57,811 nucleotides of DNA. Source: Escherichia phage vB_EcoS_AVIO78A. The number at the start of each line of letters is the position of its first letter. Position 1 is the stretch's first letter. A model generated the notes under the pieces. It made no database searches. It was not told the DNA's origin and saw nothing but the letters and a program-made list of their open reading frames with translations. The DNA is taken from the sequence record MZ726797.1; one strand, 5' to 3'. The position numbers and the translations under genes are program-made. Below, one piece after another: positions 5,131-8,637 of this stretch.

Positions 5131-6894
5131 ATGAATAAGTTTACTGGAAATATTCATAATTACCCGCGTTGGCGGGATGCTTACGCAAACGACGAACGTA
5201 TCTGGCGAAAAGGTCAGCCACGCCCGGATTACAAACAGTGTTACATTGACCGTATTAACCTGTTAAATCGTATGCGCACGGATCGGGCAATTGTCCCGGT
5301 ACTGAAAAAGTATTACGAAACAAACCCGGTAGCGTTTATCCTCGACTGGGCGTTTACTTACGACCCGCGTAACGTCGGTACTGAATATCCACCCAACATG
5401 CCTTTCTGCCTTTTTGAACGTCAAATCGACATGGTTCAGTTTGTTTACGAAGCGCTTGAAGATAAAGAGAAAGGGCTTTGGGAAAAATCGCGAGATTACG
5501 GTGCAACCTGGGTAGCCTGTGGCTTGTCCGTGTGGGCGTGGCTGTATCGTCCTGGTTCTTCAGTTGGCTGGGGATCACGTAAAGAACAGCTTGTTGATAA
5601 ACTGGGCGACCCGGATAGTATTTTTGAAAAGATTCGCCAGATTATTCGCGCATTACCACCAGAATTACGCCCTGTTGGTCTGCGTGAAAAAGACCATCTG
5701 GTTTATATGAAATGTATCAACCCTGAAAACGGTGCGACAATTACTGGTGAAGCTGGTGACAACATTGGTCGTGGTGGTCGTAAATCTGTTTACTTTCTCG
5801 ACGAAGCGGCACACGTAGATCGTCCTGAACTGATCGAAGCGTCGTTGTCAGCTAACACCAACGTCCGTATTGATATCAGTTCGGTTAATGGCGTTGGTAA
5901 CGTTTTTTATCGTAATCGTAAAGCTGGTCTGGAGTGGGAACCGGGCAAAAAATTACCTCGTGGTAAATTGCGTGTTATGGTTCTGGACTGGCGCGATCAC
6001 CCAGCTAAAGATGACGAATGGTATAAGCGAGAAAAACAATCTTTCGCTGAAAAAGGTTTACAGCATATTTTCGCACAGGAAGTTGACCGCGATTATGCCG
6101 CTGCTGTTCAGGGCGTGTTGATTAAAGCTGAATGGGTACGCGCTGCTTTTGATGCTTTCCGTGACACAGAATGGCGCAAAGCTAATGGACTACTTACACC
6201 AACAGGTCAACGTATCGCCGGACAGGACGCAGCAGACGGTGGTGAAGATGCCAGTGCGCTGGTAATTGCTCACGGTGTATTCCTGACACATCTGCAACTT
6301 GACCACAGGGGCGCTGAACTGGCTGCACCAGGAATGTTGACTATGGCTAATATGCTGGGTGTTGATGAATACTGGTACGAAGTTAACGGTGTTGGTACAG
6401 GCGTTAAAGTAGCGGCAAATGACCGAAAAGATACTTTACGCTTCCGTGTGCGTCCGTGGTTACCGAATGGAAAAGTTGTGGATCCGGGCGGTGATATTAT
6501 CGGTGGTACGAAACCTGGCGATAAAGACCGTAAATCAAACAAAGATTATTTCTCAAATTATAAAGCACAGGCATCGTGGGCGTTACGCTTGCGTTGTCAG
6601 CGAATTTATAAATGGTATGTGGAAGGTCAACCACAGGATCCAGACGAAATCATTCTGATTGATCCATCACTGGAAAATGCACAACGGTTAGAAGCTGAGT
6701 TAAGTCAGCCAACGTATACAAGTAACGGTGCCGGGAAGATTGTGATCGACAAAAAACCAAATGGAAGTAAGTCGCCAAACTTTTTCGATGCTGCGGTTAT
6801 TGCACTATCACCAAAACGTACCGAATTCGTTGAAGAACCGTTTACTGGCGGTGTGAATCCTGTTGGTACTCCTGAATATGGTGACATTTTTTAA
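5131..6894 (+). CDS. terminase large subunit
   Basis: 587 aa following TerS-like gene; ATPase-like segment KSRDYGATW and acidic FLDEAAH motif; followed by terminator. Confidence 0.75.
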   Translation: MNKFTGNIHNYPRWRDAYANDERIWRKGQPRPDYKQCYIDRINLLNRMRTDRAIVPVLKKYYETNPVAFILDWAFTYDPRNVGTEYPPNMPFCLFERQIDMVQFVYEALEDKEKGLWEKSRDYGATWVACGLSVWAWLYRPGSSVGWGSRKEQLVDKLGDPDSIFEKIRQIIRALPPELRPVGLREKDHLVYMKCINPENGATITGEAGDNIGRGGRKSVYFLDEAAHVDRPELIEASLSANTNVRIDISSVNGVGNVFYRNRKAGLEWEPGKKLPRGKLRVMVLDWRDHPAKDDEWYKREKQSFAEKGLQHIFAQEVDRDYAAAVQGVLIKAEWVRAAFDAFRDTEWRKANGLLTPTGQRIAGQDAADGGEDASALVIAHGVFLTHLQLDHRGAELAAPGMLTMANMLGVDEYWYEVNGVGTGVKVAANDRKDTLRFRVRPWLPNGKVVDPGGDIIGGTKPGDKDRKSNKDYFSNYKAQASWALRLRCQRIYKWYVEGQPQDPDEIILIDPSLENAQRLEAELSQPTYTSNGAGKIVIDKKPNGSKSPNFFDAAVIALSPKRTEFVEEPFTGGVNPVGTPEYGDIF

Positions 6895-6901
6895 ACAGTG
6901 T

Positions 6902-6931
6902 GGCGGGAATATTCCCGCCCGTTTTCTTTTT
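6902..6931 (+). terminator. intrinsic terminator after terminase gene
   Basis: GGCGGGAATATTCCCGCC hairpin plus T-rich tract. Confidence 0.65.
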
Positions 6932-6968
6932 AATTCTTGACAAATTACATTATAAATGTTTGTAAATT
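6922..6968 (+). promoter_or_regulatory. candidate promoter of accessory operon (UP-like, -35 TTGACA, -10 uncertain)
   Basis: resembles the conserved promoter family but spacer to a good -10 is atypical. Confidence 0.35.
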
Positions 6969-7055
6969 ATCTGTTAGATTAATGTAACACGTCTATACTC
7001 CTGTAGGTAACCAATCGGTTACAGTTAATTAACATTCTCTCACAGGAGTTTCAAC

Positions 7056-7160
7056 ATGTCTGACATGACTTTAGTTCCCACTGGCGGTTTCGGCGGTGAA
7101 GCTGGCGCGGCTGCACTTGGCGGTGGTATCGGTGGTCTTATCGGTTCCTGGTCGCGGTAA
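7056..7160 (+). CDS. short Gly-rich ORF (34 aa) overlapping start of next gene; possible leader or frameshift partner
   Basis: ATG with AGGAG RBS at correct spacing; translation MSDMTLVPTGGFGGEAGAAALGGGIGGLIGSWSR. Confidence 0.35.
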   Translation: MSDMTLVPTGGFGGEAGAAALGGGIGGLIGSWSR

Positions 7161-7713
7161 CTTTGGTGGTCCTGTAGAAGTTCAAGCCTCTGTAGATACC
7201 AACGCTATTCTGCAAGCTATCAATAACGGTACTCTTCAGACCATTCAGGGTCAGAATGGTACTAACCTGACTGTTGAACGCTCAGCAGCTTCTACCTATA
7301 ACGGTCTGACCCAACAGAACACACAAAACCTGCTGGCAAACGTTCAAGGTTTTGCAGGTCTGAACACGCAGATTCAACAGGGTACTAACACTGTGACCAA
7401 TGCGATCTGTGCATCTGAAACTGCGGCACTGACTCGTTCTTTCCAGGCACAGTTAGCGGCTGAGAAGTGTTGCTGCGAAACCAACCTGAATATCGAACGT
7501 CAGGCAGAAGCAACTCGTGCACTGATCCGTGACCAGTTCGCACAGTCTCAGGCTGTTCTGATTTGTGACCTGAAATCTCAGATTCAAACGCGTGACTTCC
7601 AGTTGTCTCAATTGTCACAAACGTCTCAGTTGGCGTGCAAAATTAACCAGGTCGATCAGCTTATTAACTTCAAGCTGCCTACTCCGCAAACTCCACCGAC
7701 TGGCTGCTGCTAA
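7096..7713 (+). CDS. Gln/Asn/Thr-rich Cys-containing protein with signal-peptide-like N-terminus
   Basis: ORF track (GTG start, no internal Met); N-terminus KLARLHLAVVSVVLSV; C-terminal GCC; start ambiguous. Confidence 0.45.
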   Translation: MKLARLHLAVVSVVLSVPGRGNFGGPVEVQASVDTNAILQAINNGTLQTIQGQNGTNLTVERSAASTYNGLTQQNTQNLLANVQGFAGLNTQIQQGTNTVTNAICASETAALTRSFQAQLAAEKCCCETNLNIERQAEATRALIRDQFAQSQAVLICDLKSQIQTRDFQLSQLSQTSQLACKINQVDQLINFKLPTPQTPPTGCC

Positions 7714-7763
7714 TTGGTCAACTAAGCGCCTCTGTACGGGGCGCTTTAACAGGAGATAAGAGT

Positions 7764-8123
7764 ATGCATTACAAACCGTATTACGTTATCAAAAAAGACG
7801 ATGATGACGATGAAGAGGAAGATGTAGAAATTCATCACCATCATCATTATCACCACGGGCATCACCCGGACACGACGGGAGTATTTCATCATGATAGCTA
7901 TGCTGGCGAACATGGTTCAGTTATGGCCCATGTTAAAGCACGTATGGATAACCCTCCTTCGACTTGGGCGTCGTACCACGATAAGCCCGGCGGGATGATG
8001 TCCATTGTTGAAATGGAATATCGCGAACTGATGGAAGAAAAAGCCGAAGGTTCGACGTCTGGTATTAAAAAAGAGCTAACGGATCTGGCTGCAGCCTGTA
8101 TCAACGCGCTTAAAAAGATGTAA
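7764..8123 (+). CDS. Asp/Glu- and His-rich protein (possible metal-binding)
   Basis: ATG with AGGAGA RBS; DDDDDEEEDVEIHHHHHYHHGHH tract. Confidence 0.55.
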   Translation: MHYKPYYVIKKDDDDDEEEDVEIHHHHHYHHGHHPDTTGVFHHDSYAGEHGSVMAHVKARMDNPPSTWASYHDKPGGMMSIVEMEYRELMEEKAEGSTSGIKKELTDLAAACINALKKM

Positions 8124-8139
8124 CTAACAGGAAACCGAC

Positions 8140-8637
8140 ATGCAGAATATTAACGCAGGTATGGGTGTCACCCAGTTTAACGGTATGAAACCGCGAAGCA
8201 CTATTAACATTGGTGGTGTGGAGTGGTCATTACGTCGGGATGCCACTGACTCAACAACAATGTTTCCTCACCCGAAGGTAAGCTGGCTTAACGCTGGTTG
8301 TGAACCGATGGGTGATGGTCGTTTTCATTACTGTTGGATTTTGGGTGTGATTCCCCCGACACCGGGGACAATCGAACGACCTGTTAATGTGATGTATGTT
8401 GGTTTCCATCAATTTAAAATTAATATCGCACCTAATTCAATTAGTCAGGCTGATTTAGACAGGATGCATGTTTATGTCAGCGATACTTCTCATTTTGCTG
8501 GTGAATTTGTCAGTAAGTTTTTAGGTACAGAACCTGTGGAAACTCGTGAAAATATCAGCCCGTGGCCCCCGATGAATGATCCTCGTGAGCAACCAAAAGT
8601 AGCCAAAAATAAGGTAAACGAAGATGACGAAGAATGA
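8140..8637 (+). CDS. hypothetical protein
   Basis: ORF track with RBS; acidic C-terminus. Confidence 0.5.
   Translation: MQNINAGMGVTQFNGMKPRSTINIGGVEWSLRRDATDSTTMFPHPKVSWLNAGCEPMGDGRFHYCWILGVIPPTPGTIERPVNVMYVGFHQFKINIAPNSISQADLDRMHVYVSDTSHFAGEFVSKFLGTEPVETRENISPWPPMNDPREQPKVAKNKVNEDDEE

Follow-up and report, generated by a model that had tools for sequence, protein, structure and literature searches.

What does a small phage protein do that opens with a run of acidic residues followed by a block of histidines? This question is raised by gene B, at 7764..8123 in Escherichia phage vB_EcoS_AVIO78A (sequence record MZ726797.1); the whole stretch of 57,811 nucleotides (nt) that was analyzed, called the window below, is the genome of a 9NA/Sasha-like siphophage. 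Gene B stands second in a cassette of four genes, A-B-C-D, that share one orientation. The initial annotation had suggested divalent-metal binding or a chaperone function for its product, or an acidic DNA-mimic segment. The explanation that we favor, which we rate a little under an even chance, is that gene B encodes a metal-dependent MazG-type nucleotide pyrophosphohydrolase with a transition-metal-binding acid/His tail, acting with three partners. Of the functions first suggested, divalent-metal binding is the most plausible property: the composition of the His tract resembles that of metal-binding tails, and the core has a predicted MazG-type fold with a four-carboxylate motif.

The features of gene B are as follows (NTP, nucleoside triphosphate; pLDDT, predicted local distance difference test; ORF, open reading frame). 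All residue counts for the wider family, here and below, were taken over 142 cluster representatives.

7764..8123, + strand: gene B, encoding a His/acid-tailed MazG-like protein of PHROG 9157 (from the ORF list; 119 residues plus stop)
7751..7755, + strand: Shine-Dalgarno sequence AGGAG, 8 nt 5′ of the gene B ATG (read from the sequence)
7764..7796, + strand: residues 1–11, MHYKPYYVIKK, a basic/hydrophobic strand-like motif (M-+-x-Y-h-h-h-+) that recurs in distant relatives
7797..7823, + strand: residues 12–20, the acidic run DDDDDEEED (from the translation)
7833..7865, + strand: residues 24–34, the His tract HHHHHYHHGHH, with His at 9/11 positions (from the translation)
7866..7910, + strand: residues 35–49, a variable His-rich linker with HH at 42–43 (pLDDT <50)
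7911..8120, + strand: residues 50–119, predicted three-helix core (helices 50–62, 77–95 and 98–118), all-alpha NTP-pyrophosphohydrolase-like
8016..8027, + strand: E85-Y-R-E88 in helix 2, first half of the putative metal site (E85 in 140/142 and E88 in 135/142 representatives)
8073..8084, + strand: E104-L-T-D107 in helix 3, second half of the putative metal site (conserved in the close subgroup)

Fold and putative metal site of the core domain

Structure prediction with AlphaFold2, carried out for a single chain, yields three helices for residues 50–119 (pLDDT 88–98) and disorder for residues 1–49 (pLDDT <50), MHYKPYYVIKK being of low confidence as a monomer. The predicted core is an all-alpha helical bundle that can be superposed on solved members of the MazG/HisE/dimeric dUTPase group. 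Indeed, the top 21 PDB matches found by Foldseek all belong to this one superfamily (M. tuberculosis MazG, phosphoribosyl-ATP pyrophosphatases (HisE), AF_0060, HISN2 and DCTPP1/RS21-C6), with probabilities up to 0.97 and E-values no better than 0.15. Furthermore, the core carries the motif E85xxE88-x15-E104xxD107, which is invariant or nearly so in a subgroup of 31 sequences, E104 being invariant and D107 nearly invariant there. It corresponds to the four acidic metal ligands, ExxE then ExxD, of this superfamily, in which the Mg2+-binding acidic residues are Glu119/Glu122/Glu138/Asp141 in M. tuberculosis MazG and Glu46/49/74/Asp77 in C. jejuni dUTPase (PMC10014863).

The likeness to the all-alpha NTP pyrophosphohydrolases (MazG, HisE/PRA-PH, dimeric dUTPase, DCTPP1/RS21-C6, AF_0060) thus comprises the predicted helical-hairpin fold and an ExxE...ExxD motif with a spacer within the known range. 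In addition, the RDWEQFH segment of DCTPP1 aligns with the Trp-containing segment of the gene B protein before the first motif helix; hhalign pairs TW..Y....ME..EL with RDWEQFH....GEVGEL, the reference being a small set of aligned DCTPP1 and archaeal pyrophosphatase (4qgp) sequences (P 0.006, probability 6%). Small phage-encoded members of the superfamily exist as well, such as MazZ of phage S-2L, and cyanophage MazG is another phage example. Among the 142 relatives, PRA-PH (13 relatives, best E 0.0024) and MazG (8 relatives, best E 0.00034) are the most recurrent Pfam families, although all of these matches are sub-threshold, the relatives scoring 17–19 bits against Pfam MazG (PF03819) and PRA-PH (PF01503), for which the cut-offs are 21–22. 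Profile searches of the PDB with the B family likewise gave no significant match to a solved member. The gene B protein differs from the known enzymes in having no significant profile match and only three helices in ~70 residues, and the wider family differs in having His at the fourth ligand position. Altogether, the models allow a fold of the all-alpha NTP pyrophosphohydrolase type to be assigned to the core with good confidence, homology to these enzymes is probable, and catalysis is what we infer by analogy with them.

Composition and conservation of the acid/His tail

The poly-Asp/Glu plus poly-His protein that the initial annotation placed at 7764–8123 is indeed there: both ends and the strand are exactly those of the ORF, the string quoted for it stands in the translation, and KKDDDDDEEEDVEIHHHHHYHHGHH is encoded in this ORF on the + strand. 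At the position of the AGGAG of gene B, a ribosome binding site is annotated in the record of phage Sasha. The protein starts in the order MHYKPYYVIKK-DDDDDEEED-VEI-HHHHHYHHGHH and has additional His at positions 42, 43, 50, 56 and 72 beyond the tract. His accounts for 15/119 residues (12.6%), compared with 2.2% across the ORFs of the window, and is concentrated in the flexible region, with nine among the 11 residues of the tract and 13 within the first 53 residues. Within the window, nine or more His in 11 residues are expected by chance 6.5e-9 times and nine Asp/Glu in a row 1.9e-4 times; a six-frame scan of the window found neither a second 14-residue stretch with at least seven His nor a second Asp/Glu run of at least seven. 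Since its codons are mixed (CAT/CAC and GAT/GAC/GAA/GAG), the tract is not a pure DNA repeat.

The acid/His tract is conserved among related phages. Strand motif, acid run, an h-x-h element and HHH-[TVIYH]-HHHH occur in that order in 16/142 representatives; examples of such tails are DDDDEDDIEVHHHTHHHHHH, DEDDKVHHHHVHHHHHH and DEEPDQVHHHTHHHYHH, which are joined to cores less than 50% identical to that of gene B. Distant relatives begin much like MHYKPYYVIKK (MRKYLLLRR, MKYLMVRR, MPKYVVLRE), and the acidic run lies N-terminal to the His tract in most of the His-tailed relatives. In comparison with phage Sasha, residues 1–36 show seven synonymous and no nonsynonymous codon differences, and the six nonsynonymous differences within the N-terminal 48 residues all fall in the linker 35–49 (1–36 being identical). 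Judged by these codon comparisons, the acid/His tail is under purifying selection.

In a tree built with column 107 masked, all 16 HHHxHHHH tails are found in one clade of 31 tips, within which a strong His tract was gained or lost ~8 times. The N-terminal region of the clade with Asp at position 107 consists of ~15% His, versus 4% in the group with His at this position and 2.2% in the background, and those members of the Asp107 clade that have no strong tract still possess His-rich linkers. Taken at face value, Asp107 is associated with poly-His (15/35 versus 0/103, Fisher p 7e-11). Yet, as the tails are confined to one clade, this raw association largely reflects shared ancestry, and a functional coupling of Asp107 and the tail was rejected on the column-masked tree.

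The computed charge of the tail changes from -9.4 at pH 7 to -0.2 at pH 5.5. Protonation of the histidines would thus make the tail a charge switch, and metal binding is expected to act likewise.

Proposed mechanism and points against it

In the mechanism that we propose, the C-terminal 70 residues would fold as a minimal helical domain of the MazG/HisE/dimeric-dUTPase type and, by analogy with solved members, form a core dimer or tetramer. E85, E88, E104 and D107, located where helices 2 and 3 face each other, would coordinate at least one divalent cation that activates a water molecule, so that an NTP, or a related pyrophosphate-containing nucleotide, would be split into nucleoside monophosphate and pyrophosphate. 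Residues 1–49, predicted to be a disordered tail composed of the hydrophobic strand motif, nine acidic residues and the His block (9/11), would bind transition metals (Ni, Zn, Co, Cu, possibly Mn) and form an element switchable by metal or pH. The tail may capture metal and deliver it to the active site, or it may regulate the core domain or its partners, the gene B protein presumably working with the co-inherited proteins A, C and D.

Several observations weigh against this mechanism. The core has three helices, the fourth helix of typical MazG modules being absent. In the wider family, position 107 is occupied by His in 103/142 representatives, by Asp in 35 and by Glu in 4, and E104 is replaced in 37/142; the carboxylate tetrad is therefore not family-wide, and the ancestral function of the B family may not have been NTP hydrolysis. 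K93 and K103, the putative triphosphate-binding basic residues, are poorly conserved across the family. A link between tail and active site is speculative because His is no Mg2+ ligand and Mg2+ is the usual MazG cofactor. Finally, the cassette often adjoins tail-fibre genes, a location that is not an obvious one for a nucleotide enzyme.

The family pattern ExxE...ExxH suggests a transition-metal site rather than a classical Mg2+ tetrad, the gene B protein belonging to a minority clade with the all-carboxylate version. Members with His107 often end in ..HLAAAC..AHH.MTC, with additional His/Cys along helix 3 (P0057, P0061, P0064, P0073 and locus L038, 6196–6486); judged from its residues, this ending suggests a His/Cys transition-metal site without counterpart in the gene B protein.

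Family and homologues of gene B

The gene B protein belongs to PHROG 9157, a family of unknown function (E 5.4e-47, 160 bits, residues 1–119 on profile positions 4–118 of 121). By tblastn, homologues were found in 114 phage records. Matches over the full length are restricted to Sasha-like phages, Hafnia phage yong3 and Salmonella phage Segz_1, the full-length homologues in Sasha-like phages being 84–97% identical (96.6% in KarinMuster (Bas82)). For Seuratvirus, Nonagvirus, T1-like Drexlerviridae and Eiauvirus the match is limited to the last ~70 residues, and the core is 58–75% identical to the Seuratvirus, Nonagvirus and T1-like versions. Within PHROG 9157, the Seuratvirus version has the N-terminus MSHIKIA..PRVKLPK, whereas the Sashavirus version has MHYKPYYVIKK plus acid run and poly-His. 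Independent annotators labeled the homologue 'putative pyrophosphatase' in two BASEL Seuratvirus genomes.

When 31 homologues are aligned, a highly variable N-terminus is followed by the invariant core PPxTW..Y....GG..SIVEMEYxELM..K..G....KELTDLAAAC. Searching 1.84 billion representative proteins with a core profile gave 168 clusters, and nearly all of these proteins have 80–130 residues with the domain at the C-terminus. The gene B protein itself has no match in Pfam (none even at E up to 1), NCBIfam or PADLOC, and neither the query nor two family profiles gave anything significant against Pfam, NCBIfam, PADLOC and PDB chains. A search with a 74-sequence core profile for Pfam-labeled intermediates returned unlabeled family members only, and P0178 and P0179, the most MazG-like distant relatives, had no match in the phage collection or the PDB. 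Weak matches to PA2G4 and the DC-SIGNR neck were dismissed as chance or repeat matches. In the literature on His-rich phage proteins, MazG in these phage genera and virion proteomics, we found no paper on the gene B protein. A separate observation concerns the metagenomic protein P0046 (73 residues), in which the N-terminus of gene A, MSDMTLLPTGGGFGGDAGAAGLGGAVGG, is joined directly to the B core, LMSIVEMEYKELM; this implies either a deletion across most of A and the whole B tail or a chimeric assembly.

Genome setting and the four-gene cassette

Between the large terminase gene terL (5131..6894) and the portal gene runs a short rightward unit that includes gene B, in a region 96–97% identical to Escherichia phages PJ16 and KarinMuster (Bas82) and to Sashavirus isolates. 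The unit, which is bounded by two terminator-like hairpins, has the following further features.

6902..6919, + strand: terminator-like hairpin after terL, upstream boundary of the cassette
7056..7713, + strand: gene A, PHROG 9288, split by a 38-nt deletion into the ORFs 7056..7160 and 7096..7713
7722..7745, + strand: GC-rich hairpin between genes A and B (RNA fold -17 kcal/mol, z -2.6)
8140..8637, + strand: gene C, PHROG 8329, 165 residues
8624..8878, + strand: gene D, PHROG 7239, 84 residues, overlapping the end of gene C
9066..9085, + strand: terminator-like hairpin of eight pairs plus T-run, downstream of gene D

All four genes, A-B-C-D, are present in the same order in 28 of the 34 loci that were fetched, and three of the four genes in three further loci. 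The arrangement is unchanged even in distant metagenomic and Shewanella-associated contigs, the B cores of which are 31–46% identical. Phages carrying the cassette include Sashavirus, Seuratvirus, T1-like and distant metagenomic ones, and its genome position differs among them: it is located between terL and portal, far from the tail genes, in the window, behind the gene for the lateral tail fibre in a T1-like phage, after the tail genes in eiAU and Seuratvirus, beside lysis genes in locus L004, and among fibre-like genes and a reverse transcriptase gene in the metagenomic locus L037. Gene A of Sasha-like phages has ~80% nucleotide identity to its Seuratvirus counterpart, a value suggestive of module exchange. 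A guess that gp36–38 of phage 9g constitute the cassette was checked and found to be wrong.

Proteins A, C and D matched nothing known. The N-terminus of protein A, which starts MSDMTL(V/I)PTGG, is rich in Gly and its middle is rich in Gln/Asn; a CCC cluster and a CC at the C-terminus are both conserved. Others have annotated the gene as encoding a tail fibre or a fibre chaperone. In protein C, His and Cys occur at invariant positions. The hairpin at 7722–7745 is annotated as a terminator in phage Sasha. Because only three U (three T in the DNA) follow it here, it may attenuate rather than fully terminate transcription, and it may set the expression ratio of A to B-C-D.

Some peculiarities of individual loci were noted in passing. 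Near 7148 in gene A, 38 nt (TGGTTCGGTAACGGCTGGGGTGGCGGTGGTGGCTGGGG) of a Gly-rich tract present in phage Sasha are absent, at a point flanked by TGGT repeats; this leaves a 34-residue ORF, 7056..7160, and an overlapping 205-residue ORF starting from GTG at 7096. The split could be a real slippage deletion, producing a pseudogene or a two-piece gene, or an assembly error in the G-rich repeat; in the T1-like phage JakobBernoulli, two separate ORFs are likewise annotated at the position of gene A. Between terL and the cassette, phage Sasha has a homing endonuclease gene of 1.55 kb, encoded on the minus strand (locus L002, 536–2086); PJ16 and the window (6920–7055) have no such gene, and the DNA there is merely intergenic and AT-rich. 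In L037, a reverse transcriptase gene (RVT_1) and a Phage_tail_APC gene lie at 12031–13619, downstream of the cassette by a few kb, and may belong to a diversity-generating retroelement. In the Shewanella-associated loci L039 (1–5133) and L040 (1–5109), the cassette is preceded by a giant ORF of 3100–3760 residues with LPD38, ResIII and helicase domains that looks like a large polyvalent protein.

Alternative explanations

The main rival to a hydrolase, clearly less probable in our estimate, is that the gene B protein is a non-catalytic MazG-fold adaptor or assembly factor for the cassette proteins, possibly linked to fibres, the strand motif of which would dock to a partner while the His tract would bridge oligomers via metal ions. 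HxH motifs mediate metal-bridged oligomers in phage fibre needles and spike tips (T4 gp37, P2 gpV). The constant gene order, kept in very distant loci, the location after lateral tail fibre or tail genes in the T1-like phage, Seuratvirus, eiAU and L037, the fibre-like Gly-rich and Gln/Asn-rich composition of gene A together with its annotation elsewhere, and the predominance of His107 along with the absence of conserved basic residues would all suit an adaptor. Yet the cassette of the window is remote from tail genes, that of L004 adjoins lysis genes, gene A is disrupted in this very phage, the near-invariance of E85 and E88 is better suited to a ligand-binding site than to a scaffold, and the literature yielded no virion proteomics data on any homologue. 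Less probable still would be a metal buffer or metallochaperone in which the tail stores host Ni, Zn or Co or passes it on to protein A or C, the core serving oligomerization only. Its tail does resemble in composition the His-rich tails and loops of metal-handling proteins, with His-rich loops of RcnA, ZnuA and ZrgA as its only weak NCBIfam/Pfam matches, and the conserved Cys motifs of protein A and the invariant His and Cys of protein C are in line with metal handling; however, these matches reflect low-complexity composition only (E 0.1–3.4), no known metalloenzyme is encoded nearby, and about half of the Asp107 clade and nearly all of the His107 majority keep the cassette without a strong tract, so that the His tract is not essential to the core function of the cassette. 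HypB, SlyD, UreE, Hpn and the ZnuA/RcnA loops share with the gene B protein a dense, flexible His tract with Asp/Glu that is joined to a folded domain, but the gene B protein has no GTPase, peptidyl-prolyl isomerase (FKBP), UreE or transporter domain according to Pfam and NCBIfam and no hydrogenase or urease genes (hyp/ure/coo) around it, being instead phage-borne with a MazG-like domain. The chaperone function suggested initially is thus not borne out.

It is improbable that the tail is a neutral low-complexity expansion arising from replication slippage on an ordinary small protein. Tract length does vary in close relatives (HHGH is deleted in P0004, and in P0007 the tract is rearranged), strong tracts have come and gone within the clade, and the T1-like and Seuratvirus versions carry a different N-terminus instead; against this stand the purely synonymous changes relative to Sasha in residues 1–36, the mixed codon usage and the ordered architecture retained in relatives with strongly diverged cores. 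The third suggestion of the initial annotation, that the acidic segment is a DNA mimic or anti-restriction element, we regard as effectively excluded and of very low probability. A net charge of ~-10 at pH 7 on a small accessory phage protein of unknown function is what would speak for it, yet Ocr/ArdA-type mimics are very acidic and display extended surface carboxylates on a folded scaffold, whereas here only nine acidic residues stand in a row in a region predicted to be disordered, the isoelectric point is 6.3 for the core and 5.7 for the whole protein, and no match to PADLOC, Pfam or PHROG anti-defence families was found. Moreover, the close relative KarinMuster, although it carries the gene at 96.6% identity, is reported to be markedly sensitive to restriction-modification systems (PMC11990801). 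The least probable explanation, also effectively excluded, is that the + frame is an artefact and the real gene lies antisense to it. A very hydrophobic minus-strand ORF of 55 residues starting MFASIAIMMKYSRRVRVMPVVIMMMVMNFYIFLFIVIIVFF is present at 7746..7913, still open in relatives, and could be miscalled as a small membrane protein. Its hydrophobicity is, however, the mechanical complement of His/Asp/Glu codons, synonymous changes in the + frame alter the Sasha antisense peptide (VIMMMVMNFYIFLF versus VVMMVMMNFNIFFL), and it is the + frame that has a Shine-Dalgarno sequence and runs on into a conserved domain. Because the synonymous + changes scramble the antisense peptide, this ORF is a by-product of codon complementarity.

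Implications

The B family is present in widely used groups of coliphages and Salmonella phages (T1-like, Seuratvirus, Nonagvirus and 9NA/Sasha-like), with records labeled 'hypothetical' or at best 'putative pyrophosphatase'. The family thus already has entries in the PHROG catalogue and in GenBank, and annotators had guessed at a pyrophosphatase-like nature. Neither the selected acid/poly-His tail nor the ExxE...ExxH pattern of the wider family nor the four-gene cassette was described in any paper that we found, and a search for MazG with histidine-rich tails found nothing; to our knowledge, none of the described MazG-like proteins has a disordered acid/His tail or a fixed four-gene cassette. 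Phage MazG-like enzymes have so far been associated with remodeling of nucleotide pools and with base modification.

Gene B resolves no long-standing question and is not a new kind of system; it is a curiosity that can be tested in model phages in common use. With its MazG-fold domain, its selected acid/His tail and three orphan genes as constant companions, it is experimentally tractable: the untagged protein is expected to bind nickel-nitrilotriacetic acid (Ni-NTA), mutants of active site and tail are obvious, and the whole cassette can be removed from BASEL phages in one deletion. If the protein performs ordinary house-cleaning, the main value of our analysis would be a better annotation of PHROGs 9157, 9288, 8329 and 7239. 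A bolder idea, which we consider rather unlikely, is that A-B-C-D is an unrecognized, horizontally mobile module of metal chemistry in which a Cys-cluster protein A, a MazG-fold protein B and an orphan-fold protein C act jointly. If true, the module might serve the hijacking of host metal, a nucleotide- or metal-dependent step at the fibre or envelope, or anti-defence, and the B family, mostly ExxE...ExxH, would form a new branch of metalloproteins within the MazG fold, not concerned with NTP house-cleaning. If, as in the explanation that we favor, gene B instead encodes a MazG-like enzyme that depends on or is regulated by transition metals, this would add a new layer of control to this family.
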